From Clostridium sp. CAG:465 (GTDB lineage Bacteria > Bacillota > Clostridia > TANB77 > CAG-465), in contig FR891275.1 in the NCBI GenBank assembly GCA_000433755.1, positions 12,721-76,720 of the forward strand: a stretch of 64,000 nt of DNA. Direction: 5' to 3'. A program made the translations under genes and the position numbers. The notes beneath the pieces are model-generated. The model was given only the letters and a program-made list of their open reading frames with translations, did not search any database and was not told the DNA's origin. Each line of letters begins with the position of its first letter. The stretch's first letter is position 1. Shown here one piece after another: positions 1,900 to 33,110 of the stretch.

Positions 1900-2574
1900 A
1901 TGATAAAAATTGGAATGTGTGATGATAATTTAAATAGTATAAAGATTGCATCAAAATTATTAGAATCAGAAACTATAGAACAAAATTTAGATGCTGAAAT
2001 ATCAATAATTTCAAGCAATCAAAAAGAAATTTATGACGCTATATATGAAGGTAAAATTGATATATTATTTCTAGATATTGATTTTAAAAATAATGGAAAA
2101 AATGGTATAGAATTTGCCAGAGATTTAAGAAAAATAAACAAAAAATTTTATCTTGTCTTTTTATCTGCTCATCAAAGATACTTGCACGTATCTCTTACCA
2201 CAAAAGTTTTTGACTATTTGGTAAAACCTATCAATAGAGAAACACTCAGAGAATTAGTTGCAAGGTTTAAAGATGAATTCGAAACAAATAAATCTATATT
2301 TTTGCACCTAAATAAATGGGAATATGTAAGGACTAACGATATCCTATATATTGAAAAAGATGGAAAGAAATCTATTATATTTACTGAATCTCAAAAATAT
2401 ACAACAAACAAAAACTTAAACAGCTTATTATCTGAACTTCCAAAAAATTTTTTAAGATGTCATAAATCGTACATTTTAAATTCTAATAAAGTATTAAGCA
2501 TTGATAAAAAAGAAGGACAAGCCTTTTTCGGAAAGGATTTTTCTTGTCCTGTTAGTAGCCAATTTGAATTATAG
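1900..2574 (+). CDS. LytTR-family response regulator (AgrA/VirR-like)
   Basis: N-terminal receiver domain (LFLDIDF acidic pocket) and C-terminal LytTR DNA-binding domain, 224 aa. A good RBS precedes it and the kinase gene follows. Confidence 0.85.
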   Translation: MIKIGMCDDNLNSIKIASKLLESETIEQNLDAEISIISSNQKEIYDAIYEGKIDILFLDIDFKNNGKNGIEFARDLRKINKKFYLVFLSAHQRYLHVSLTTKVFDYLVKPINRETLRELVARFKDEFETNKSIFLHLNKWEYVRTNDILYIEKDGKKSIIFTESQKYTTNKNLNSLLSELPKNFLRCHKSYILNSNKVLSIDKKEGQAFFGKDFSCPVSSQFEL

Positions 2575-2606
2575 CATAAATGTATATGAAAAAGGGGATT
2601 TTTATA

Positions 2607-3938
2607 TGGAAATTTTAATAGTTAGAGGTCTAAGCTCAATCCTTGAAGCTGGTCTATGGACCTATTTTATCGTCTCAGTTTCTAAAATAATTTCAAAAGA
2701 AGAGATAAACTTTAGTAAAAAACAAATTATATTGTTCTTTATATCATTAATATTTTTAACTGAATTGCGGTTATTTAATAAGAGATCATTTTCCATTAGT
2801 TAACTGGTTAATAATATATCCTAGTATATTTATTTTATCAATCTTCATTTTAAAGTTAAATGCCGTAAAATCTATTACTATAGTTATAACAAATCTAGTA
2901 ACATTAATTATTACTGAATTAATGTCAGCATTTACATGTATGAGTATTTTTAAAATCGATTCAAATATTTTACTAACTAATTGGGTATATACAACCATTG
3001 CACTTGTTATTCAATACACATTATTTTTTGCAGTTATTAAAATAGCAAATATGATATCAAAAAACAAAAGTGAATTTAAAGATATGTTATCATCTATAAA
3101 CAAAAAAACAGTTATTACAGTACTCTCTATACTTGCTCTTTGTATTTTTCCACAAGTAATTATATATGTAATAAACAAATATAACTATCCTACATACTTT
3201 TTAATACTAAACTCAATCCAAATGATTATTGTATGTATTGTAATATTTAGCTCATTTAAGAATTCTATGGAAAAAGAAAAAGCAAAAAGTGATTTAATGA
3301 CAATAACATTGCATAATAAAACCATGACTGGAATGGTTGATGGAGTAAGAAAATTAAAACATGATTACAATAATATAATGCAAGCTTTAAATGGATATAT
3401 GTCCACAAAACAATATGATAAACTACAAGCACATATTAATTCTGTAATTGGAGAATGTAGTGATATAAATAATTTATCAGTCATTAATCCAAAGATTTTT
3501 AATGATCCTGCAATTTATGGAATAGTTGGCGCAAAATATTTTACTGCAATTGAAAAAGATATAAAATTTGAATTAGATATTTCTACAAATATTGCAAATA
3601 TTAATTTTTCAATGCCTGACCTTTCGATAATACTAGGAATTATACTTGATAATGCTATGGAAGCAACTACAAAACTTGAAAAAGGAAGATATATAAAGCT
3701 TGAAATGAGATTTGATAACAAAAAATGCGCTGATATTATTCGCGTATATAATACTTACGATACAAGCATTAATATTAATACAAAAGATGTATTTAAAAAA
3801 GGTTATTCTAGTAAAGAAGTAAAATCAGGAATAGGTCTTTGGGAAGTCAAAAAATTAATTGATAAATCTGGAAACTCTCAAATATATGCTTCAATTGAAA
3901 AAAATCAATTTATTCAAAATATAATAATAGAAAAATGA
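2607..3938 (+). pseudogene. AgrC/VirS-like GHKL sensor histidine kinase with the N-terminal membrane domain split by a frameshift near 2757-2803 (ORFs 2607..2803 and 2922..3938)
   Basis: H-box HDYNN and a GHKL ATPase region (LDNAMEAT...GIGLWEVKKL). About 7 predicted TM helices are spread over two frames. The frame of 2922 is open back to 2760 but holds no start codon or RBS. The upstream frame has a good RBS at 2595-2603. Confidence 0.6.
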
Positions 3939-4022
3939 TGATATGTTTAAACATTATCATCATTTTTTAATGTAAATATATCTCCATACTTTTATTGTAC
4001 GGAGATATAGAATGTGTAAAAA

Positions 4023-4136
4023 ATTATTTTTGTATTAAGCATCTTGGAGCTTTAGGTTGGTGAATTAATAATACAACACAACTATTAGTTGATGATCTAG
4101 CATATTTTTCGACCATTTTTTTGAAGAATTTTTTCA
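4023..4136 (-). CDS. agrD: AgrD autoinducing-peptide precursor (37 aa: MKKFFKKMVEKYARSSTNSCVVLLIHQPKAPRCLIQK)
   Basis: Small ORF directly downstream of agrB on the same strand with RBS AAGGGGGG. It has an amphipathic leader, a Cys-containing core and a C-terminal tail bearing an HQP..P motif like clostridial AgrD. Confidence 0.7.
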
Positions 4137-4326
4137 TTTCTTTCCCCCCTTATATTTGATATACCGTACAAATTATATTACTAACTTTGCACTATTAGAT
4201 AAACTTTTTAATTTATATTTCATACTATTTCATTTAAAATAAACAATATACTATCGTATATATAATTAAAAAGCAATATAATAAATACAATATATCTAAT
4301 ATTTAAAGAATAATATTTTTATTATA

Positions 4327-4980
4327 CTATTCTTTATTTTCATTATAGTATTCTTTGAATTCATCTGACTCATAACTATGTTTGCATCTTAAAATTTTAT
4401 ACATAAAGTTACTAGTAAAAAAATCAATTAAAAATACTGTGGAGATTACTATTCTTGCGTATTGTTCATTAAATCTTGTTAATACCAATGTTGAAATATA
4501 TATGAACACTATTGAAACAATTGCAGATATTTTATACTTCTTTCTTTTACCTTTATTTAAAATAGGTATTTCTTCCGTATCAGCAGGGACATGTTTATAT
4601 ATTACATATAATGAATAAATAAAAATTAATGCTGACACTATATATAAATAAATTACAGGAACATTAACAAATTTTCCAATAATTACTGGTATAAAGAAAT
4701 ATAGTGAAGTAAAAATAAAACATTCTGTATTTGTTCTTGCGTGTGCTCCTCCAACTAATACTTTATAAAGAATTGTTATTAGCAATACAACACCGACTTG
4801 AGGTAAAATGTGAAAGAATAAACTTACTATAAAAACAAATAGATATTTAGGTACATCTTCTACTATTCTTGTTATCCCAAATAACATTATTTCTCGTTCA
4901 TTTCCTTCTACAGTTTCGCCTCTATACAAGAAATGATCTAAAAGGTAATTGCTAACTTTATCAACCATTAGCCTCACCAC
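4327..4980 (-). CDS. agrB: AgrB accessory gene regulator protein B (AgrD-processing membrane endopeptidase)
   Basis: 217-aa polytopic membrane protein carrying the AgrB catalytic motif GGAHARTNTEC (His and Cys 7 residues apart). Confidence 0.85.
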   Translation of the reverse strand: MVRLMVDKVSNYLLDHFLYRGETVEGNEREIMLFGITRIVEDVPKYLFVFIVSLFFHILPQVGVVLLITILYKVLVGGAHARTNTECFIFTSLYFFIPVIIGKFVNVPVIYLYIVSALIFIYSLYVIYKHVPADTEEIPILNKGKRKKYKISAIVSIVFIYISTLVLTRFNEQYARIVISTVFLIDFFTSNFMYKILRCKHSYESDEFKEYYNENKE

Positions 4981-5165: not shown

Positions 5166-5345
5166 ATGCAAAATGATAATTTAGAAAAAAGTGATAGATT
5201 AGATTTTATTATTAATGACAACTTAAATGAATGTTTACATATAGGAGATAAAGCACCTTTATTTAACGCAAAAACCACTTTTGGAAACATTAAATTAAGT
5301 GATTACGCTGGGAAATGGCTTATACTTTTCTCCCACCCACGGTGA
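5166..5345 (+). pseudogene. 1-Cys peroxiredoxin (Prx6-like), 5' fragment, separated from its 3' part by an inserted element
   Basis: RBS AAAAGGAGG precedes the ATG. Translation ...[33 protein letters not shown] then hits TGA. The conserved DFTPVCTTE region continues out of frame (extra T near 5343) and is cut at about 5355. Confidence 0.7.
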
Positions 5346-5587
5346 TTTTACACCCGAATAAACATACAATTTGGGGAAATATAATAATTAAATAAATCTG
5401 CATATTATTTAGTAAATACCTAAATAAATATAACCACGGGATTTCCCGTGGTATATCTAGATATAAAATAAAAAATATATTACACAAAAATAAAACATAT
5501 ACAGAAATAGTTAATATTTAAAATAACATACTTGTAAGAAATATTAATTTTTTGATATGAAGTAACATTTCACAACAATAAAATTAA

Positions 5588-6199
5588 TTACAAAATATTA
5601 TATTTTTTGTTTATTAATTCAAAAGCTTTTTTCACATCATATTCATCAGTTATACTAATGTTACATTCTTTAATATCCTTTAACATTTCTTTTTTTGTAT
5701 TTTTAATTTCCAAAGCTGACTTTCCATCGAAATTATTCGTATTTTCATATTCGATTAAAGTACCTAGATCCTCAACAATTTGAAAGGCAAATTCTCTACC
5801 ATTTTTTTCATATACAATAACATGATACTTTACTTCTATAAGTTTGTAAAATCCCAAAAATCCAAATAAACTTTCTGCCTTTATTAAATCGTTACAATCC
5901 AAGTTTACTTTTTTTTCTGAAATAACATCTCCATTATTGTCTAATTCTTTATTTTTATATGTTATTTTTCTAATTACTTTTCCATCCAATTTTAGATTTC
6001 TTAATATTACAGAATGTTTTAATAATTTTTGTATATTTTCTTTTTTTATTTCAACATCTAAATTCGTCAAATATATATCATCAATATCACTTTCACGTAT
6101 TTTGGTAAAGCCTTCCTTTTCTAGTTTACAAATTGCATCTTCAATTTTTTCAGTTAACCTTACAGTTATTTCTACTTGTTTCATTTCTAATCCCCCCAT
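5588..6199 (-). CDS. CYTH-like (triphosphate tunnel / class IV adenylate cyclase fold) protein, cargo of the inserted element
   Basis: 203 aa. N-terminal beta-strand EITVR where ExExK is expected, DDIYL (DTYF-like), a central ILRNL...IRKITYK strand pair, and C-terminal LIEYE. Clear paralog of 30003..30581. Confidence 0.5.
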   Translation of the reverse strand: MGGLEMKQVEITVRLTEKIEDAICKLEKEGFTKIRESDIDDIYLTNLDVEIKKENIQKLLKHSVILRNLKLDGKVIRKITYKNKELDNNGDVISEKKVNLDCNDLIKAESLFGFLGFYKLIEVKYHVIVYEKNGREFAFQIVEDLGTLIEYENTNNFDGKSALEIKNTKKEMLKDIKECNISITDEYDVKKAFELINKKYNIL

Positions 6200-6382
6200 A
6201 TATTTCTTTGAGTTTTAGTATATATTAAATTTATAAATTAATCAAATAAAATGAACAAATATATGTAATTATTAAAATATTTAATTTTTCACTTTTTATT
6301 AATTATAACTTAAGGCAAAAGAAATATCCTCACTCTTTTATGCATAAAATTTATTATAAATGATATAAAGGAGTTAAGAGTA

Positions 6383-6595
6383 ATGCAGATTACAAATATA
6401 GAAATACAAAATAAAAAATATGTTCAATTTTATTTAACAAAAGAAGAACTAGAAAAAGATGAAACAAAAAATATAATTGAAAAATACAAAAAAGAAAAAT
6501 ATAACGTAGCTATTTTCTTAACTGGAAAAGAAGATTATTCCGAAGTTCTTAAAAACATAATAAAAAAACAAATGGAAGCAAATAAAGATGTCTAA
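6383..6595 (+). CDS. hypothetical 70-aa protein inside the element, immediately upstream of the recombinase gene
   Basis: ORF with RBS (AAGGAG), Lys/Glu-rich. Its position suggests an accessory or directionality factor, but no recognisable motif. Confidence 0.35.
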   Translation: MQITNIEIQNKKYVQFYLTKEELEKDETKNIIEKYKKEKYNVAIFLTGKEDYSEVLKNIIKKQMEANKDV

Positions 6596-6645
6596 TAATA
6601 TAATTCTAAATAAAGTCAAACAGGAATTTGACAATAAAATAACAA

Positions 6646-8202
6646 TTGTACGGATATTGTAGATTGTCTAGAGATGAAGACAAAGAAAATTATGCAAGTA
6701 TTGAAGAACAAAAACAAATTATCAAAGATTATGCATTAACTCGTAATTGGACTATCTCAGATTTCTATATAGATGACAATGTTTCGGGATATACGTTTAA
6801 CAGACCTTCATTTACAAAAATGATTGAAAAAGTAAAAGAAGGAAAAATAGATGTAGTTATAGCAAAAGATTTATCAAGAATCGGAAGACACAACGGAAGG
6901 GTATTAGTTTTAATAGATGAATTTAAAAATATTCAAAAAAATTTAATATTAGTTTCTGAAATGGGTGGTACTTATGATGTTTTAAACGACAGAGATGATA
7001 CTATTGGAATTACAACATGGTTCAATGAGAGATATGTTAAAGATTGTTCAAGAAAAACTAGAGACCACATGTATTCTAAACAAAAAACTGGAAGATTAAT
7101 TATGGGAAGTTATTATGGATATATAAAAGATCCAGAAGATATAACAAAACTATATGTTGATGAAGAATTACGACCTGTTATAGAATTAATATTTAAGCTT
7201 TATACTGAAAAAAGTTGTGGAAGAAGAAAAATTTGTGACATTTTAAATAGTAAGTATAGCTATCCTACTCCATCTTTATACTATCAAACAAAACATTTAG
7301 AACGTGGTAGAATATATAAACATCCAGTTCAAAAATTATGGTGTACATATATGGTAAAGAATATCTTAGAAAATGATATATATTGTGGTACACTTAGAAC
7401 CCATAAGAAAAAAACTGTATCTATAAGAGGCAAGGTTGTAAAACTTCCAGAGGAGGAACATTTTGTGTTTGAAAATCATCATGAGCCAATTATATCTAAA
7501 GAAACTTTTAACTTAGCACAAGAGATAAGAAAAAGAAAAGTAAATTCAAAAAGTACATCAAGTACAAGAAAAAGAATTTATTACTTTTCAGGACTTTGCA
7601 GATGTGGTGATTGTGGATTTGGAGTAAGTGGAATTACAATAACCAAAAAACATTCTCAAAAAGGCTATGAATGTTCTAGTTATAGAACTTACGGAAAAGC
7701 CAGATGTAAATGCCATGAAATTAAAGAATCAGATATAATTATACATTTTAAAGAATTTTTAAAATTTACAAAAAAGCAATATATTAATGAAATAAATAAA
7801 ATACAATTTAAAACAAAAACTAATGTTAAAACAAATAATAAAGAAAAAATTAAATTTAAGATCGAAGATCTAAATGCTGAACTTAAAGTCCTAATAAATC
7901 AAAAAGTTAAAGATTTAACCAATATTACAAATAATTATCAAAAAAAAATAATTGAAAATACATATAAAGAATTAGAAAAATATAAAACTAATCGTATAGA
8001 ACAATTACAAAAACTATCAGAACAACAACAAGAAGATTTAGACATAAAAAAATTAAAGACGGCAATAGAGTATTTTGATGATATTATAAAATCTAATAAA
8101 CCAAATAGATATATTTTAGAGTGTTTAATTAATAAGATATGGATTTATCACGATAAGAGTGTGAAATTTGAGCTAAAACCAGACATTAAAAAGTTAGTAT
8201 AA
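6646..8202 (+). CDS. large serine recombinase (resolvase/invertase catalytic domain, recombinase domain, zinc ribbon, coiled coil)
   Basis: N-terminal YCRLSRDED carries the Ser nucleophile. SRIGRHNGRVLVLIDEF resolvase motif. Cys cluster CRCGDCGF...CKCH. 518 aa. Confidence 0.9.
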   Translation: MYGYCRLSRDEDKENYASIEEQKQIIKDYALTRNWTISDFYIDDNVSGYTFNRPSFTKMIEKVKEGKIDVVIAKDLSRIGRHNGRVLVLIDEFKNIQKNLILVSEMGGTYDVLNDRDDTIGITTWFNERYVKDCSRKTRDHMYSKQKTGRLIMGSYYGYIKDPEDITKLYVDEELRPVIELIFKLYTEKSCGRRKICDILNSKYSYPTPSLYYQTKHLERGRIYKHPVQKLWCTYMVKNILENDIYCGTLRTHKKKTVSIRGKVVKLPEEEHFVFENHHEPIISKETFNLAQEIRKRKVNSKSTSSTRKRIYYFSGLCRCGDCGFGVSGITITKKHSQKGYECSSYRTYGKARCKCHEIKESDIIIHFKEFLKFTKKQYINEINKIQFKTKTNVKTNNKEKIKFKIEDLNAELKVLINQKVKDLTNITNNYQKKIIENTYKELEKYKTNRIEQLQKLSEQQQEDLDIKKLKTAIEYFDDIIKSNKPNRYILECLINKIWIYHDKSVKFELKPDIKKLV

Positions 8203-8367
8203 TAGAACTTTTTCAAAATAATGTGTAATATATTTAAAAGTTATTTGCAAAAAGTGGCTAAATATGTGAAAAGTCGTTTGAAAAATGTGCATATTTTCCT
8301 CAAAAGTCGTTTGATTTTTGTGAAATATAGAAAAAATAATTAAATAACAATCCCCAAATTGTAAGTA

Positions 8368-18728: not shown

Positions 18729-21350
18729 TTATTTTGAGTTAAGTTCTTTTATTCTCTTTTCAATATCATTTAGCATTTCTTCATATTTAATTACTTTCAT
18801 TTTTTCTTGTTCAACAAGATTTGCAGGTGCCTTAGATACAAACTTCTCATTTGACAACATAGATTTTGCTCTGTTTAATTCCTTTAAAACTTTTTCTTTT
18901 TCATTATTTAATCTTTCATTTTCTTTATCTAAATCAACTGCTCCAAGTAAATCTAAATATATGCTAATTCTTGGAAGTGTAATAGAGGTATAATTGTTAT
19001 TTGCCTTTTCTTCTGTATCAATATACTCTATATTCTCTATATATCCAAGTCTTTTTATATAATCTTCGCAAAGTTTAAATAATTTTTTATCATTTTCATT
19101 TTTTAGATATACTTGTGCGTTTACTTTTTTTGATCCATTTATACCTGAATTTAATCTTTCATTACGTATATTACGTATCATATTTAAAAATAATTCTATA
19201 ATTTCAGTTTCTTTTTCAAAGTTATAATTATCACAAGGATACATATCCTTCATAATTGAATTTTTATCAGTATGTAAATTTTGATATATTTCTTCAGTTA
19301 TAAATGGCATATATGGATGTAGCATTTTAATAACTTGTACTAAAACATGATTTAGTGTCCATACTGCAACAGAATATGAAAATGGATTTGTTTCCTTATC
19401 ATATAATCTTGTTTTTACTATTTCTATATACCAATCACAAAAATCTGACCATATAAAGTCATACAATTTTTGAAGCGGCACACCAAGTTCATACTTATCT
19501 AAATTATCTTTTACTTCTTTTTCAAGTTTTGATAATTTTGTTAATATCCATTTGTCAGCAGGTAAAAAGTTTTCAACATTTTCCACTGCTATATCATCTA
19601 TATACATGTTTACAAATTTAGCTGCATTCCAAAGCTTATTTGCAAAATTTCTAGCAGTTTCTAATTTTTCAGGCATATATCTCATATCATTTCCAGCTGA
19701 TATATTTTGAGTAAGTGAAAATCTAAGCGCATCAGTACCATAATTTTCAATTACTTCTATAGGATCAACGCCATTTCCAAGCGATTTAGACATTTTTCTT
19801 CCTTGTGAATCTCTAACTAATCCATGTATATATACATTTTCAAATGGAATTTTATTTGTATAATGAAGCCCTGAAAATATCATTTTACTAACCCAGAATG
19901 TTATAATATCATAACCTGTTACAAGTACTGAATTTGGATAAAAATAGCTATAATCTTCTGTATTATCAGGCCATCCAAGTATTGAGAAAGGCCATAATGC
20001 TGATGAGAACCAAGTATCTAACGTATCTTCATCTTGAACAACTTCTCCTCCACATTCACATATCGTTATATGTTCTTTTGATACTGTAATCTTACCACAC
20101 TCTTTACAATAATACGCAGGTATTCTATGTCCCCACCATAACTGTCTTGATATACACCAATCTTCAATATTTTCCATCCAATTTAAATATATCTTTTCAA
20201 ATCTTTTTGGAATAAATTTAATATCACCATTTTTAACAGCTTCTATTGCTGGTTTTGCAAGTTCTTCCATTTTTACGAACCATTGATTTGATATATACGG
20301 TTCAATTGTATGATGACATCTATAGCAAGATCCTACATTATGTACATGTGGTTCAATTTTTACTAAAGCACCAATATCTTTTAATTCCTTAACAATTTCT
20401 TCTCTTGCTTCTAACGTTGTCATTCCTTCATATTTTCCAGCTTTTTCATTTAATGTACCGTCTTCATTTAATATATTTATAATCTCTAAATCATGTCTTT
20501 TTCCAACTTTAAAGTCATTTGGATCATGTGCTGGAGTAATTTTAACAACACCTGTACCAAATTCCATATCTACATATCTATCAGCAACTACAGGAATATA
20601 TTTATTTACAATTGGAAGAAATACTCTTTTACCTACTATATCTTTGTATCTATCATCATTTGGATTTACAGCAACTGCTGTATCTCCAAGCATTGTTTCA
20701 GGTCTTGTAGTAGCAACAACAACATAATCATCACTATTTTCTATTTTATAACGTATATGCCATAAATTTGACTTTTGTTCTTCATATTCAACCTCAATAT
20801 CTGAAATTGGAGTTTTACACTCAGGGCACCAATTTACAAGTCTTTCACCTTTATATATAATGCCTTCGTTATACAATCTTTCAAATACTTCTAAAACTGC
20901 CTTTGAGCATCCTTCATCCATTGTAAATCTTGCTCTTTGCCAATCACAAGAAAGGCCTAATTTTCTTTGCTGCTCTACGATTTTTCCGCCATATTCTTCT
21001 TTCCATTTCCATGCCTCTTCAAGAAATTTTTCTCTACCAAGACTTTCTTTAGACTTTCCTTCTTTTTTTAATTTTTCTACAACTTTAACTTCTGTTGCAA
21101 TACTTGCATGATCTGTACCTGGTACATATAGCGTTGGATCTCCAAGCATTCTATGATAACGAATTAATATATCTTGAATTGTATCATCTAATGCATGTCC
21201 AATATGTAGCTTTGCTGTTACATTTGGAGGTGGCATAGATATTACAAAAGGTTTTTTATCTTTATCAATTACAGGTTTAAAATATCCATTTTCCTCCCAA
21301 TTTTTATATATTTCATTTTCTCTTTTCTTAAAGTCAAAATTTTTATCCAA
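18729..21350 (-). CDS. valS: valyl-tRNA synthetase
   Basis: HIGH (KLHIGHALDD) and KMSKS motifs, 873 aa, C-terminal coiled coil. Confidence 0.95.
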   Translation of the reverse strand: MDKNFDFKKRENEIYKNWEENGYFKPVIDKDKKPFVISMPPPNVTAKLHIGHALDDTIQDILIRYHRMLGDPTLYVPGTDHASIATEVKVVEKLKKEGKSKESLGREKFLEEAWKWKEEYGGKIVEQQRKLGLSCDWQRARFTMDEGCSKAVLEVFERLYNEGIIYKGERLVNWCPECKTPISDIEVEYEEQKSNLWHIRYKIENSDDYVVVATTRPETMLGDTAVAVNPNDDRYKDIVGKRVFLPIVNKYIPVVADRYVDMEFGTGVVKITPAHDPNDFKVGKRHDLEIINILNEDGTLNEKAGKYEGMTTLEAREEIVKELKDIGALVKIEPHVHNVGSCYRCHHTIEPYISNQWFVKMEELAKPAIEAVKNGDIKFIPKRFEKIYLNWMENIEDWCISRQLWWGHRIPAYYCKECGKITVSKEHITICECGGEVVQDEDTLDTWFSSALWPFSILGWPDNTEDYSYFYPNSVLVTGYDIITFWVSKMIFSGLHYTNKIPFENVYIHGLVRDSQGRKMSKSLGNGVDPIEVIENYGTDALRFSLTQNISAGNDMRYMPEKLETARNFANKLWNAAKFVNMYIDDIAVENVENFLPADKWILTKLSKLEKEVKDNLDKYELGVPLQKLYDFIWSDFCDWYIEIVKTRLYDKETNPFSYSVAVWTLNHVLVQVIKMLHPYMPFITEEIYQNLHTDKNSIMKDMYPCDNYNFEKETEIIELFLNMIRNIRNERLNSGINGSKKVNAQVYLKNENDKKLFKLCEDYIKRLGYIENIEYIDTEEKANNNYTSITLPRISIYLDLLGAVDLDKENERLNNEKEKVLKELNRAKSMLSNEKFVSKAPANLVEQEKMKVIKYEEMLNDIEKRIKELNSK

Positions 21351-21589: not shown

Positions 21590-21870
21590 TATAAAAAACA
21601 CAGTCTTATCCTTAATTTAAGGACGAAGACTGTGTTCGCGGTACCACCTTAATTCATGCTTATGCATGCTCTTAATTACAATTAACCGATTGTTTACGGA
21701 ATATACTTACACATAATATATACTTCAGTATATCAGCTCCAAAGCTACCTTCAAATACATTAGTGTTAGAAAACTTTTCAGCCACGGGTTTTCATCTCTT
21801 ATTTCTATTTGTATTTTACTCCTCTTTATCATCGCTTTTTCATTAAATTACTTTTAAAGTATACCATAAT
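21590..21870 (-). promoter_or_regulatory. T-box riboswitch leader upstream of valS
   Basis: Minus strand carries the T-box consensus AAGGTGGTACCGCG (complement of 21637-21650). A terminator hairpin follows (AACACAGTCTT...AAGACTGTGTT, 21598-21636) and then a U-run. Confidence 0.6.
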
Positions 21871-28986: not shown

Positions 28987-29062
28987 CGGGGTATAGCTCA
29001 GTTGGTAGAGCGCGTGGTTTGGGACCATGAGGTCGCACGTTCGAACCGTGTTACTCCGACCA
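28987..29062 (+). tRNA. tRNA-Pro (anticodon TGG) with encoded CCA
   Basis: Manual fold: 7-bp acceptor stem (one G-U), D-arm GCTC/GAGC, anticodon loop TTTGGGA, T-arm GCACG-TTCGAAC-CGTGT, discriminator A + CCA. 76 nt. Confidence 0.85.
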
Positions 29063-29214
29063 TATTTAAGCAGTAAATTCAATTTACTGTTTATTTTTTG
29101 TTGAATTTCAATAGAATTTATAAGAAGTTAAAACCTAGTAAATATGCTATTTTCAAAGTAATTTTGAAGATCGGCATATTTTTTTATTCTAAAAAAATTA
29201 TTTTAACTGCTTAT

Positions 29215-29300
29215 AAATTCCAGAAAATTACCCTATTTTTCTCTGGAAAGAATTTCTGGAAAATTTTATATTCATTTCTGGAATTTCTGGAAAATCAAAA
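29215..29300. repeat. iteron-like cluster: at least five copies of TTTCTGGAA(A) and its complement TTCCAGAAA, directly upstream of the RepA_N gene
   Basis: Copies at about 29218, 29241, 29254, 29275, 29285, plus a degenerate TTTTCCAAAAA at 29327. The overlapping 93-aa ORF 29098..29379 is probably spurious. Confidence 0.5.
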
Positions 29301-29359
29301 ATTGTTTATTTCAAGCAGATTTATAGTTTTCCAAAAAATTGAAAGGAGAACTGAATTAA

Positions 29360-29923
29360 ATGGAATTTACCCCATATAAAATTACAGAAACATTAGAATA
29401 TATGTTTTACCAAGTTCCAATGGAATTATTTTTTAATGCTAATTATAAAAATAATTTGTCATTAGAAGCTAAAATGCTATATGGACTTCTACTTAGTCAA
29501 TTAACTTTATCTATAAAAAATAATTGGCAAGATGAAAATGGAGATGTTTATATAATACTTACAAGAGAAAAAGTACAAAAAATGCTTAATATTTCTGATA
29601 AAACTGCTACTAAAGTTTTTAAGCAATTAAATAAATGCAAACTTATTTATGAAAATAAGCAAGGACAAACAAAACTTAATCTTATTTATGTTGGAAAAAT
29701 TAATCATGATGATACTATTCAAAATATGATTCGTAAAAATTTCGATTCTAGAGTCGGAAAAAATACGATTCATGACTCGGAAAATTTACGACCTAACTAT
29801 AATAATAAAAACTATAATAATAGAACTAAAAGCAATCGAAACAATTTTGAGCAAAGAGATTATCAAGAAGGAGCATTATATTATTTATATGCTAATAACT
29901 TGGAACAATTATATGATAATTAA
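29360..29923 (+). CDS. replication initiator A N-terminal-domain (RepA_N) protein, short form
   Basis: YKITETLEYMFYQVPMELF...LSLEAKMLYGLLLSQ...NNWQDENGDVYIILTREKVQKMLNISDKTATKVFKQL matches the RepA_N family. RBS GAAAGGAG. Confidence 0.65.
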   Translation: MEFTPYKITETLEYMFYQVPMELFFNANYKNNLSLEAKMLYGLLLSQLTLSIKNNWQDENGDVYIILTREKVQKMLNISDKTATKVFKQLNKCKLIYENKQGQTKLNLIYVGKINHDDTIQNMIRKNFDSRVGKNTIHDSENLRPNYNNKNYNNRTKSNRNNFEQRDYQEGALYYLYANNLEQLYDN

Positions 29924-30002
29924 GAAATTTTGCCTTTTTTAACAAATTTATTAATTTTTGTGGTATAATAACTTAATAATTTAAAACTAGGAGGATTAAA
30001 AA

Positions 30003-30581
30003 ATGTCTGTAAAAGAGGAAAATGAAATTACAATTAAGATAACTTGTTCAAATGAACAATTAATTAAACACTTAACAGATAAAGGATTTTGCGAGGGAAG
30101 AAAATTTACACTAGATGATTATTATTTAATTCCAAAAGATTTGAAATTAGATGATTTAACAACAAGAGATATTTTATCTAAAGCCGTAATAATTAGATAT
30201 ATTGTCGATGATGGCAAAATAATTCAAAAAATAACATTTAAAAAGAAAGACATTAATGGTAATGGTGAAATTTTGAGTCAAAAAGCAATTAATTGCGATG
30301 TATTGGACTATAAAGCAGGAATAAATTTATTTAATGAACTTGGATATTACCAAATTATGAACATTAAAGAAAGTGATATAATTTATTATAAAGATAAACT
30401 TGAATTAGCAATAAAATTCATTGAAAATAGTAATACTTTAATAGAAATTGAAACTGATGATAATTTTAAGACAATTGTTGAATTAAAACAATTGGTAACT
30501 GAATTAGAAATACCAATTGAAAAAGGTAATTATTTTGTAAAAAAAGCAGAAAATGAATTGAATAAAATTTTAAAAAGATAA
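30003..30581 (+). CDS. CYTH-like protein, paralog of the element-borne 5588..6199 gene
   Basis: 192 aa. EITIKIT N-terminal strand, DDYYL, IIRYIV...IIQKITFK, LIEIETDDNF. Alignable over its whole length with the other copy. Confidence 0.5.
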   Translation: MSVKEENEITIKITCSNEQLIKHLTDKGFCEGRKFTLDDYYLIPKDLKLDDLTTRDILSKAVIIRYIVDDGKIIQKITFKKKDINGNGEILSQKAINCDVLDYKAGINLFNELGYYQIMNIKESDIIYYKDKLELAIKFIENSNTLIEIETDDNFKTIVELKQLVTELEIPIEKGNYFVKKAENELNKILKR

Positions 30582-30749
30582 AAACAAATTATAAAAATGT
30601 TAGGCTTAGTAATATAAAGGAGATTATAATGTACAATAAAATTTGTATAATTGGTGTGTATATTTGTCAATGATGCTTGATTTTTCAATTTTTGCATTTT
30701 TATTGATTTTATAAAACCTTTTTGATAAAATAATAGAAAGATTTTTGTT

Positions 30750-31220
30750 ATGGAAGATATAAGTGTTATGTTAGATGGATATAAATTTAATTATAGAGTA
30801 GCTGCTATAATAAAAAAAGATGGTAAAATTTTGTTACATAAAAGTAAGAAAGATAATTTTTATGCGATACCGGGTGGACGTGTAAAAGTTGGAGAATCAT
30901 CTATTAAAACTTTAAAAAGAGAATTTATAGAAGAAATGGGAAAAGATATTAATGTTAAAGATTTTACTGGATTAGTTGAAAACTTTTTTGAATATAACGG
31001 AAAAAAATATCATGAGATAATGTTTCTTTTCAATGTGGAGTTTGTTGATAATGATTTATATAATGTTGAAAAAATTACAGGATTAGAGGAAAACGGTAAA
31101 ATAGAATTTATATGGAAAAATATTAATGAATTAAAAAAGCTAGATGTGAGACCTGTATTTTTAAAAGAAAAATTGTTAAAAACAGAGGAAATAGGTCATA
31201 TTATAAACAATAAGTTATAA
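30750..31220 (+). CDS. NUDIX hydrolase
   Basis: NUDIX box GGRVKVGESSIKTLKREFIEEMG. Confidence 0.8.
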   Translation: MEDISVMLDGYKFNYRVAAIIKKDGKILLHKSKKDNFYAIPGGRVKVGESSIKTLKREFIEEMGKDINVKDFTGLVENFFEYNGKKYHEIMFLFNVEFVDNDLYNVEKITGLEENGKIEFIWKNINELKKLDVRPVFLKEKLLKTEEIGHIINNKL

Positions 31221-31497
31221 TAAAATATGTATTTTTGTATTTTAATTAAATTAGAATTTTATTATTCAAAACATACATTAATTATTTTTTGAAAATACAC
31301 ATAATTCAAAAACTTTAACTGTTATTTTACAATGTTCTATAGAATAAACAGCGGCTTTATACCTAGTTATTCCCATTAATGACATTTTGCAACAAATACC
31401 ATTTTTGGATAATTTTTATTAATTATATATTTTCTTAGAAATTGATTATTTAAAAAAATGTTAAAGAAATAAAAAATATGTAAGGAGAGTGTATATT

Positions 31498-31953
31498 ATG
31501 AGAGCACCGTTTCAGGTTTTAGTTATACCATATAAAATAATAAATAACGAAATATTATATGGAATTTTTTTAAGATCAGATATGAAAGTTTGGCAAACAA
31601 TATCTGGAGGTGGCGAAGATGATGAATCACCAATAGAAGCAGCAAAAAGAGAAGCAAATGAAGAAGCCGGTATTGATTATAGTGCTAACTATATTAAGCT
31701 GGATTGCACTTGTACTATACCAGTCGAATTTATTACAGGAAAATTCACTTGGGGAAAAGATGTATATGTTTTAAATGAATATACTTTTGGGGTAGATGTA
31801 ACAGATAAAAACATTGTATTATCTGATGAGCATGACGATGTAAAATGGTTAACATATGATGAAGCTAAAAAGGTTTTAGAATGGGATAGTAATATAAGTG
31901 CTTTGTGGGAATTAAACAAGCGCTTGTTAAGAAAATTGGGAAAGGATCTTTAG
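31498..31953 (+). CDS. NUDIX hydrolase (second); ATG at 31498 follows RBS AAGGAGAG
   Basis: NUDIX box GGGEDDESPIEAAKREANEEAGI. Confidence 0.8.
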   Translation: MRAPFQVLVIPYKIINNEILYGIFLRSDMKVWQTISGGGEDDESPIEAAKREANEEAGIDYSANYIKLDCTCTIPVEFITGKFTWGKDVYVLNEYTFGVDVTDKNIVLSDEHDDVKWLTYDEAKKVLEWDSNISALWELNKRLLRKLGKDL

Positions 31954-32025
31954 CAACTAGTATGAGAAAAAAGCAAAAAGCTATAAAAATTTTGGCATGG
32001 TAATTTCAATATGACTTTACTATTA

Positions 32026-32065
32026 TATAAAAAAACATTCGCAATTACTTAAATAATCGCGAATG
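32026..32065. terminator. bidirectional rho-independent terminator between the NUDIX gene and rpsR
   Basis: Hairpin ACATTCGC...GCGAATGT flanked by A-run and T-run. Confidence 0.55.
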
Positions 32066-32071
32066 TATTTT

Positions 32072-32332
32072 TTATTTAACTGTGTATGGTAAAAGCGCAA
32101 TATGTCTTGCTCTTTGAATAGCATTTGTTACTTTTCTTTGGTGTTTAGCGCAAGTACCTGTTACTCTTCTAGGTAATATTTTACCTTTATCACTTACGTA
32201 TCTTTTTAATTTTTCTACGTCTTTATAATCAATTTCATCTATTTTATCTACGCAAAAATTACAAACCTTTTTTCTTGGTCTTCTATAAGGTTTATCATTT
32301 TTTGAATTTCTTCTATTTCTAGCGTCTGCCAT
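32072..32332 (-). CDS. rpsR: 30S ribosomal protein S18
   Basis: [11 protein letters not shown]...CNFC...; RBS AAAGGAGG before the ATG at 32332. The listed ORF begins at an upstream in-frame Met. Confidence 0.9.
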
Positions 32333-32362
32333 TTTCAATTGTCCTCCTTTCAACAAATATAA

Positions 32363-32791
32363 CTAAAATGGTAATTCTTCTGTATCATCTATTGTTATGA
32401 ATTCACCATCATCTGTTGATGCAGGTGTTGAAGCATTATTTGCCATACCTGCATTTGACATGTCTGCATCTCTTCTAGAATCTGCAAAATATGCATTTTC
32501 TATAATATAATCAGTTGCATATCTTTTTTGACCACTTTGGTCTTCCCAAGTTCTATTTTGAATTCTACCCTCAACTAAAACTTGTTGTCCTTTTCTATAG
32601 TATTTAGAACAAAATTCTGCTAACTTTCCAAATGCTGTTAAATTAAAGAAATCTGCTTTTCTTTCACCATTTGCTTCTGCAAATCTTCTGTTTACAGCTA
32701 TTGAAAAAGTTGTAACTGGTGTATTAGTATTTTGAGTAAATCTTGATTCTGGGTCCCTTGTTAATCTCCCCATAAATTGAAATTTGTTCAT
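32363..32791 (-). CDS. ssb: single-stranded DNA-binding protein
   Basis: OB fold with an acidic C-terminal tail ending ...DDTEELPF. Confidence 0.9.
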   Translation of the reverse strand: MNKFQFMGRLTRDPESRFTQNTNTPVTTFSIAVNRRFAEANGERKADFFNLTAFGKLAEFCSKYYRKGQQVLVEGRIQNRTWEDQSGQKRYATDYIIENAYFADSRRDADMSNAGMANNASTPASTDDGEFITIDDTEELPF

Positions 32792-32825
32792 TAAATTTCC
32801 TCCTTGCGTACTTTATCAGTACAAA

Positions 32826-33110
32826 TTAGTTATCTTTTTTTATAACCATGTGTTTTAAAACTATATCTTCTAATCTTAGAATTCTTTCAAATTCAGATAT
32901 AAATTCTGGTTTAGCAACAAATGTAAATAGGATATAAACACCTTCAGTTTCTTTTTTTATAGGATAAGCTAATGTTTTTTTACCCCATTCATCTACATTT
33001 GTAAGTTCGCCATTTTTTGATATCATTTCTTTCATTTTTTCACCGAAAGCAACTGTTGCTTCCTCTTGTGCTTTTGCAGAAAGAATTATAACTGCTTCGT
33101 AATTATTCAT
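32826..33110 (-). CDS. rpsF: 30S ribosomal protein S6
   Basis: MNNYEAVIIL... typical S6; forms the rpsF-ssb-rpsR operon. Confidence 0.9.
   Translation of the reverse strand: MNNYEAVIILSAKAQEEATVAFGEKMKEMISKNGELTNVDEWGKKTLAYPIKKETEGVYILFTFVAKPEFISEFERILRLEDIVLKHMVIKKDN

Follow-up and report, generated by a model that had tools for sequence, protein, structure and literature searches.

Four open reading frames (ORFs) lie on the + strand 3' of a tRNA-Pro(UGG) gene of Clostridium sp. CAG:465 and are followed by the rpsR-ssb-rpsF operon on the opposite strand. They encode a short RepA_N-domain protein, a CYTH-like protein and two NUDIX hydrolases, and the question raised by this locus is whether the four genes form a single mobile island. 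The locus was analysed within a 64-kb stretch of contig FR891275.1 (assembly GCA_000433755.1, positions 12,721 to 76,720), referred to below as the window. In the original prediction, the tRNA-Pro gene, a cluster of repeats and all four genes (each of which we found where it had been listed) were viewed as one remnant of an integrated plasmid or integrative element, or as a satellite-like element mobilized in trans. Our comparative analysis leads, with good confidence, to a different picture: a composite segment in which the left-end remnant of a dead integrative mobilizable element (IME; 29063-30602) lies next to an unrelated, older NUDIX module (30673-31979) at a tRNA-Pro integration hot spot.

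The variability of the site was assessed by aligning to the window those metagenome contigs that encode an identical SSB protein. Their flanks are 99.0-99.7% identical, and at least six different contents were found between the borders (listed with the coordinates in Table 1; L numbers denote the loci compared). This confirms both the proposed role of the tRNA 3' end as an integration hot spot and the expected presence/absence polymorphism; a region syntenic and fixed in all relatives was not observed, as the contents differ between strains. The tRNA-Pro sequence is identical in all strain variants, with divergence starting directly after CCA, at 29063-29070: identity among strains is lost at window positions 29062-29069, the tRNA end, and regained at 31980, just outside the rpsR terminator. 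The strain-variable segment bounded by the tRNA-Pro(UGG) gene and the rpsR terminator is 29063-31979. The RepA_N-CYTH module is absent from most locus variants of the same species, and an insertion sequence (IS) together with another NUDIX gene lies between the borders in L025 as it does in L020. The collection contains the identical RepA_N protein in 171 blocks, and its chromosomal context never differed; for the CYTH protein, identical copies are encoded on 192 contigs, and NCBI lists an identical protein under the name Clostridium sp. CAG:465. When species genomes were searched with the flanking protein of 459 aa, two loci only were recovered, both from uncultured gut Clostridia and too few for a genus-wide picture. 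The first, L017 (flank 98-99% identical), has a long RepA_N/Mob_Pre element at the same tRNA-Pro; the second, L018, represents a sister species (flanks 93-94% identical) and shows the order RepA_N - TnpV - DUF6664 - NikA/MobC - relaxase at this site. Overall, the tRNA-Pro/rpsR segment is a recombination hot spot that gathers and erodes mobile elements.

The nature of the element behind the RepA_N and CYTH genes emerges from its intact relatives. Window positions 28984-30602/30604 are collinear with L029-L037 at 86-88% nucleotide identity. Downstream of RepA_N and CYTH, these loci carry TnpV, DUF6664, MobC, a PF03432 relaxase and cargo of the restriction/OLD type; relatives of the CYTH protein (81-88% identical) occupy the place after RepA_N and before TnpV in elements built alike. 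In L029, L030 and L033 the element lies directly 3' of tRNA-Pro(UGG), in a different chromosomal context. A tRNA-Leu subfamily follows the same principle at three chromosomal places, where a gene for a RepA_N protein ~60% identical to that of the window is the first gene directly 3' of tRNA-Leu(UAA), and the order continues with TnpV, DUF6664, MobC, PF03432 relaxase and cargo to a 483-aa tyrosine integrase at the far end (L011-13). In L034-37, the integrase of an upstream element is followed by GTCACCTCGACCA, the last 13 nt of the tRNA-Pro gene, and then by a RepA_N element starting with TATTTAA, a junction that points to tandem accretion in the framework of PMC5704250. The copy in the window ends 21 nt past the CYTH stop codon, where the intact elements go on into a hairpin and tnpV. 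The earlier suggestion of an integrative-element remnant thus holds for the RepA_N-CYTH part, which derives from an IME, and fails for the NUDIX genes.

The cargo of the intact relatives looks defence-like (L029/L031 11187-15726; L014/L015 11094-16355; L011-13 11636-14718) and includes an OLD/AAA_15 ATPase with ASCH and a HpaII restriction-modification pair; a set in which DUF4365 is accompanied by NUDIX, a deaminase of the dCMP type and an SLFN/AlbA_2 protein; and a Fic protein. In elements with short and with long RepA_N alike, the far side repeatedly holds a DUF6076 protein that has a Cys-rich motif (L014 16417+, L017 380-1492, L022 12641-13300, L034 10605-10973).

The downstream modules of the intact elements have no counterparts in the window. 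Searches of all 64 kb with tblastn (E <= 1) detected no homologs of TnpV, DUF6664, MobC, relaxase (PF03432, Mob_Pre) or tyrosine integrase, the only matches being the rep gene itself and two of chance level (E 0.24 and 0.59). The queries included the tyrosine integrases of the relatives, and the earlier remark that no integrase is in view is borne out; the sole recombinase of the window is an unrelated large serine recombinase (6646-8202), 21 kb away. A right attachment (att) site was likewise sought: a 23-nt search of the whole window with <= 3 mismatches returned the tRNA alone, and tRNA-end cores of 13, 9 and 6 nt (9 and 13 nt with 1-3 mismatches) gave no match on either strand of 29063-33000. 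Not even CGACCA was found there, and the anticipated downstream repeat of the tRNA 3' end is missing. The absence of TnpV, mobilization, relaxase and integrase genes, together with that of a tRNA-end repeat, argues that 29063-30602 is a dead left-end remnant capable of neither excision nor transfer.

These observations bear directly on the idea that the element might still move, as a satellite or a cis-mobilizable element, by means of the integrase and relaxase of a co-resident element (e.g. one of the other tRNA-Pro elements). The integration site is indeed functional and also used by related integrase-bearing elements, the left junction has the same form as in intact elements, tandem accretion is known in the family, and elements combining RepA_N with a recombinase have been proposed as cryptic satellites (PMC7145576). 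However, a cis-mobilizable element is a decayed element keeping both att sites (PMC5704250), whereas the attachment repeat is present here on the tRNA side only, leaving attL without attR, and no tRNA-end repeat of even 6 nt exists on the right. With no relaxase or MobC in the window there is no identifiable transfer origin. A scan of viral contigs with RepA_N, limited to close relatives, returned none, and the best matches in phage records stay below 40% identity (<= 38%). Finally, the exact RepA_N protein is always found in the same chromosomal context. With neither an att duplication nor a relaxase, continued mobility appears very improbable.

An independent, shorter remnant was observed in another genome (L007 8341-9397), where tRNA-Pro and the same upstream region are followed by the first ~440 nt of the rep gene. 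This fragment is fused in frame to a C-terminal fragment of an iron-alcohol-dehydrogenase, and the 230-aa product is encoded on 4 contigs. As far as can be judged from these sequences, deletions evidently spare the tRNA-proximal end of the elements.

A RepA_N gene would also be compatible with another source, a theta-replicating RepA_N plasmid that had integrated with no integrative element involved. A related rep gene is present on 2243 plasmid records, and the RepA_N domain is accompanied by pSK41-like in-gene repeats (see below). On the other hand, the best plasmid match is 41% identical over residues 14-136 only, within the N-terminal domain, and coverage of >= 80% of the protein is not reached in any of the 2243 records, whose matches stop at residues 136-145. 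Among the close relatives (53-98% identical), every one with an examined context is chromosomal and located beside a tRNA gene; mobilization genes follow in most of them, and a tyrosine integrase forms the end of the tRNA-Leu elements. An integrated plasmid, one of the sources named in the original prediction, is hardly credible on this evidence.

The RepA_N protein is composed of an N-terminal DNA-binding domain, a repeat-encoded linker, an Asn-rich stretch and a C-terminal motif NFEQRxY..LYAN, and it matches the PHROG DnaD-like helicase loader (4.5e-26). It stops 41 aa past the linker; the ~120-130-aa C-terminal domain of long RepA_N is missing, and the long relative in L017 has about 130 residues more. 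The possibility of a truncated long form was rejected, as hundreds of relatives of 181-193 aa, including those in intact elements, align with it end to end. Most relatives are of this size and cover 96-100% of the 187-aa protein, and the short RepA_N is a family of its own. The C-terminal motif N[FY]EQRxY..L..LYAN is common to short and long RepA_N (29849-29923; L017 8677-8760) and is a candidate for a peptide on which a host replication factor docks. Compared with the intact copies, dN/dS is ~0.1 for the RepA_N gene and for the CYTH gene, a value that mainly reflects evolution in mobile copies and is no proof of the remnant's maintenance.

Two sets of repeats come into consideration for the replication origin of the ancestral element. 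Upstream of the rep gene, TTTCTGGAA has 5 exact copies in 64 kb against 0.99 expected, 4 of them packed into 75 bp (Table 1), with one-mismatch copies at 29240 and 29329(-). The cluster is conserved in the tRNA-Pro subfamily and overlaps a promoter-like TGGAAA-17-TATATT (29244-29272), a weak call, as the promoter scan found the region not enriched (23 sites vs 26 expected). Other lineages have other short repeats at the same place (AATGTCGGGA in L011; TTTTCGGAAC in L017, in the opposite strand reading), and these upstream motifs loosely resemble the in-gene half-site TCnGRAAAA, which is a lead only. The second set is located inside the rep gene and consists of the units GATTCGTAAAAATTTCGATTCTA, GAGTCGGAAAAAATACGATTCAT and GACTCGGAAAATTTACGACCTAA. 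Their degenerate pattern GANTCGKAAAANNTNCGA has 3 occurrences at exact 23-bp spacing and no other in the window, with 0 expected. The repeat block is kept in rep genes of 45-60% protein identity, the long form included. Identity in the block is flat over the three codon positions (0.81/0.80/0.83), as compared to 0.64-0.66 for the third position in the N-terminal domain; this third-position conservation reveals selection on the DNA itself.

In a staphylococcal RepA_N plasmid, the rep gene contains 23-bp repeats (GAnTCCCAAAAGATGGGAGTC / GAnTCCCAAAAGATGGGAGTCCA) at the corresponding position. The Rep protein of pSK41 binds four Rep boxes located centrally within rep, and the linker that they encode is dispensable (PMC5703833); iterons of the RepA_N type are, by description, direct repeats of semi-palindromic form that converge on a poly-A tract (PMC7145576). 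The pattern, the DNA-level conservation, the staphylococcal match and these reports together suggest the repeats at 29728-29796 as the candidate origin (iterons) of the ancestral element. The upstream cluster that had been read as iterons does exist, but it probably does not contain the origin-type repeats; by analogy, TTTCTGGAA would probably serve as an operator for RepA_N autoregulation or as recombinase arm-type sites.

The CYTH-like protein of 192 aa has no Pfam match even at E = 10, PF01928 included, and matches TIGR00318 (cyaB) at 1.1e-5 and 25.3 bits, below the cut-off of 57.95. Searches of solved structures with either CYTH-like single sequence returned noise only, and PADLOC and PHROGs gave nothing for these proteins. 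A profile of 34 relatives matched the CYTH structures 1yem (1.6e-5) and 2dc4 (2.2e-4), and an AlphaFold model (pLDDT 88.3) matched a Sulfolobus triphosphate tunnel metalloenzyme (TTM; 7ns9; Foldseek E = 2.2e-11, TM 0.73/0.78) and the class IV adenylate cyclase 2fjt (3.9e-9); the predicted structure is an eight-stranded tunnel fold. The EXEXK signature is altered to E8-I-T10-I-K12. Both paralog families have E-x-T-x-K/R, with Thr invariant in the 34 sequences, as are the basic and acidic tunnel residues R65, K80, K82, K130, E134, E148 and E150.

The paralog noted earlier is a 203-aa ORF at 5588-6199(-), the called gene starting 5 codons later. The paralogy is real (35% identity, E = 1e-30) but old. 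In other species its family is found in ordinary chromosomal neighbourhoods, once beside a true PF01928 CYTH gene, and the supposed sharing of cargo with the recombinase element is not supported. The paralog itself, a 70-aa ORF (6383-6595) and the large serine recombinase gene (6646-8202) make up a ~3-kb insertion within a 1-Cys peroxiredoxin gene (window 5166-8907), which is divided into an N-terminal part of 59 aa (5166-5345) and a C-terminal part of 165 aa (8410-8907). The same split is seen in a related contig (L047), plus an extra AAA_14/DUF4143 gene. This is an insertion in its own right, perhaps a small integrative element of the serine-recombinase type or else an intervening element that this spore-former excises during development.

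Both NUDIX translations have an intact Nudix box (GX5EX7REUXEEXGU; GGRVKVGESSIKTLKREFIEEMG and GGGEDDESPIEAAKREANEEAGI), and NUDIX-2 is NudB-like, with a match of 2.3e-17 that remains below the cut-off. The NUDIX-1 block was found in L019, L022 and L028, all without short RepA_N and CYTH; in L022 and L028 the 5' part of NUDIX-2, about 31497/31499-31657, is deleted. Both NUDIX genes are absent from the intact RepA_N-CYTH elements. Their presence in strains without RepA_N-CYTH and absence from intact elements identify the CYTH-NUDIX adjacency as a by-product of deletion. A designed operon of CYTH and NUDIX genes was rejected, the adjacency being found only in the deletion variant. We take the two NUDIX genes to be a separate, older accessory module of the same hot spot, and the notion of one island cannot be upheld for genes that occur independently in L019 and L028. 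In L023 (11309-11536), otherwise of the window type, a 495-bp deletion (window 30962-31456) cuts NUDIX-1 to 75 aa, which shows that the NUDIX module is still eroding.

A domesticated module would be another way to account for the arrangement. The host would keep RepA_N as a regulator at the TTTCTGGAA sites, which overlap the promoter-like site, driving the CYTH enzyme and, by read-through, both NUDIX hydrolases as a nucleotide-metabolism or anti-phage unit. Consistent with this, the four genes share one strand, both remnant ORFs are intact with identical proteins widespread in metagenomes, and short RepA_N of streptococcal mobilizable elements has been suggested to have a non-replication function (PMC5357655). 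NUDIX-1 also matches a candidate defence model, PDC-S07 (2.5e-12), although this may be generic NUDIX similarity. At the same time, the same short RepA_N with its repeats is the first gene of intact elements, with nothing specific to the remnant, and the low dN/dS mostly goes back to the mobile copies. The CYTH-NUDIX adjacency, made by deletion, is absent from intact elements and other strains, most locus variants of the species lack the module, and L023 already shows a disrupted NUDIX-1. We consider domestication unlikely. A broader proposal, which appears quite improbable as a whole, would assign a role to each component. The short RepA_N (DNA-binding domain, origin-encoded linker and 20-aa C-terminal motif) would represent a minimal initiator class for excised IMEs of gut Clostridia, without a host-specific C-terminal domain; the CYTH-fold enzyme (E-x-T-x-K) would serve in maintenance, defence or anti-defence by acting on a triphosphate/nucleotide signal; and the remnant would persist as the pair and the two NUDIX hydrolases benefit the host.

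For the composite segment, the order of events that we infer would start with an IME of the design RepA_N(short) - CYTH - TnpV - DUF6664 - MobC - MOBP-type relaxase - cargo - tyrosine integrase. Its integration would have taken place at the extreme 3' end of the tRNA-Pro gene through a crossover within or adjacent to CGACCA, and the element would have brought along a hairpin of its own, placed after the tRNA. In the living element, RepA_N would have bound the three in-gene 23-bp repeats for pSK41-like theta replication of the excised circle, with the upstream TTTCTGGAA repeats, overlapping the promoter, most likely acting as an operator. A later deletion would have taken everything from 21 nt past the CYTH stop codon through the right attachment site. 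The remaining left end is incapable of excision, transfer or mobilization, and the NUDIX module (30673-31979) would have come to lie beside the CYTH gene by accident, not as an operon partner.

Several points weigh against this reconstruction. No related element was recovered complete from end to end, and the integrase and right att site of the tRNA-Pro subfamily are extrapolated from the tRNA-Leu relatives and the tandem junctions. Both remnant ORFs are intact and their identical proteins are widespread (171 blocks and 192 contigs), which would fit retention for a benefit to the host. The origin and operator assignments draw on sequence pattern and analogy alone; in overall conservation the in-gene repeats (0.79-0.85) do not exceed the best-conserved part of the domain (0.83-0.84), and only the codon-position pattern sets them apart. 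Finally, the 70-bp filler (30603-30672) matches neither the RepA_N-CYTH block nor the NUDIX block.

For annotation, the four genes should not be taken as one operon or island, and the RepA_N gene of the window marks neither a plasmid nor an active replicon. The single tRNA-Pro site of an uncultured human-gut Clostridium offers a natural series that runs from the intact element through tandem array and truncated remnant to gene fragment. The locus further indicates a mobilizable-element lineage so far undescribed, which has a pSK41-type replication module cut to 187 aa and, in its intact members, defence-like cargo. Nothing is overturned by these findings: that integrative elements accrete and decay at tRNA genes is textbook behaviour. 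Only two points are mildly unusual, a short RepA_N whose gene contains a putative origin and a CYTH-fold protein, encoded in the backbone, whose catalytic motif is altered.

Table 1. Features of the tRNA-Pro/rpsR segment (window coordinates) and variants of its content among strains.
Feature	Position or length	Strand	Evidence or loci
tRNA-Pro(UGG), integration target	28987-29062	+	ARAGORN; Rfam tRNA 63 bits
Element-derived first bases: TATTTAA, hairpin CAGTAAAT-TCA-ATTTACTG, T run	29063-29099	+	kept in related elements
Upstream repeat cluster TTTCTGGAA	29218-29292	.	exact copies 29218(-), 29253, 29275, 29284
RepA_N gene, 187 aa	29360-29923	+	PF06970 E = 7.5e-22, 77.5 bits vs cut-off 30, residues 15-90
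In-gene repeats, three tandem 23-bp semi-palindromic units (GAnTCG - A tract - CGAnnC)	29728-29796	+	inside rep gene, directly after RepA_N domain
CYTH / triphosphate-tunnel-fold protein (predicted), 192 aa	30003-30581	+	profile and fold matches; backbone gene of tRNA-Pro subfamily
Last 21 nt common to intact elements	30582-30602	+	deletion breakpoint 30602-30604
Filler, 70 bp, linking truncated element to NUDIX module	30603-30672	.	strain and element alignments
NUDIX-1 module	30673-31497	+	gene 30750-31220, 156 aa; PF00293 1.6e-10, 41.5 bits vs cut-off 21.1
NUDIX-2 + 26 bp	31498-31979	+	gene 31489/31498-31953, 151 aa by called start; PF00293 3.1e-12, 47.1 bits vs cut-off 21.1
Conserved right flank start: rpsR terminator 32035-32066, then rpsR-ssb-rpsF operon	31980-32071	-	strain alignment, terminator scan
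Variant: window arrangement	2.9 kb		L001-6; L023 with 495-bp deletion in NUDIX-1
Variant: 259-aa gene + long-RepA_N fragment (residues 163-236)	1.8 kb		L021, L024, L026, L027
Variant: IS + different NUDIX gene + same long-RepA_N fragment	5.5 kb		L020
Variant: endolysin fragments + SecB, then both NUDIX genes	4.9 kb + NUDIX		L019
Variant: 294 bp, then NUDIX-1 + 5'-deleted NUDIX-2			L028
Variant: element with 299-aa RepA_N, Mob_Pre, DUF3800, DUF6076, then NUDIX-1	8.2 kb + NUDIX-1		L022

The window has a G+C content of ~25% and encodes the sporulation genes YqfD and YabP of clostridial type; tRNA-Pro(UGG) is its sole tRNA, and the Rfam scan of the island found no RNA family besides this tRNA. The hairpin at 29063-29099 is likely a tRNA terminator brought by the element; the terminator scan called none at this AT-rich hairpin. 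Within the filler, a 14-codon ORF, MYNKICIIGVYICQ, preceded by AAAGGAG, occupies 30627-30671 and may be due to chance. An agr-like quorum-sensing locus (window 1900-4980) adjoins the split peroxiredoxin gene and comprises a LytTR response regulator (1900-2574), a GHKL kinase (2922-3938) and AgrB (4327-4980(-)). An ordinary T-box leader (117 bits, 21616-21841(-)) lies upstream of the valyl-tRNA synthetase gene (18729-21350).

A literature search returned no paper describing this particular element family. With respect to phage satellites of the PICI or PLE-like kind, the window contains no integrase, phage-responsive regulation or packaging genes. The CYTH-fold protein shares the predicted tunnel fold and the conserved basic and acidic residues with CYTH/TTM enzymes (7ns9, 2fjt, 1yem), but at an identity of only 11-18%, with E-x-T-x-K in place of EXEXK and without a PF01928 match.

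Tn6215 of Clostridioides difficile and the Tn4451 family, set beside the window by description only, are also integrated elements of clostridia. In Tn6215, a RepA_N-domain gene occurs together with a TnpZ-like gene (Pre/Mob), TnpZ being known from Tn4451 (PMC3870246). A similar combination of long RepA_N and Mob_Pre is found in the alternative occupants of the same site in L017 and L022, and TnpV is, by its Pfam family name, a transposon-encoded protein. Tn6215 and Tn4451-family elements use a serine recombinase (PMC5704250, PMC7145576), and Tn4451 has numerous insertion sites (PMC5704250).

Replicons of the pSK41 type likewise have an N-terminal RepA_N domain and tandem semi-palindromic A-tract repeats in rep directly after this domain, and the staphylococcal plasmid that was inspected shows the same 23-bp period as the window. 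In contrast, the window protein has 187 aa instead of ~320 aa and keeps the short C-terminal motif without the primase-interaction domain (the C-terminal domain of pSK41 Rep contacts primase; PMC5703833). There are three repeats in the window as opposed to four Rep boxes in pSK41, an extra repeat cluster is located upstream of the rep gene, and the context is chromosomal and integrative.

A close parallel is provided by the Firmicutes IMEs of tRNA 3' ends and their decayed derivatives (PMC5704250, PMC5357655), among which short RepA_N proteins were already noted in the streptococcal IME class 10 (PMC5357655). Unlike these, the window copy consists of the left ~1.54 kb only, without integrase, relaxase and right attachment site; the backbone of its lineage has TnpV and DUF6664, to which the tRNA-Pro subfamily adds a CYTH-fold gene, and an uncultured gut Clostridium is the host. 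In both cases, insertion is site-specific at the tRNA 3' end and leaves the tRNA gene undisrupted, the intact relatives share the modules for replication/maintenance, MobC and relaxase, cargo and tyrosine integrase, and tandem accretion and frequent decay occur at the same site.

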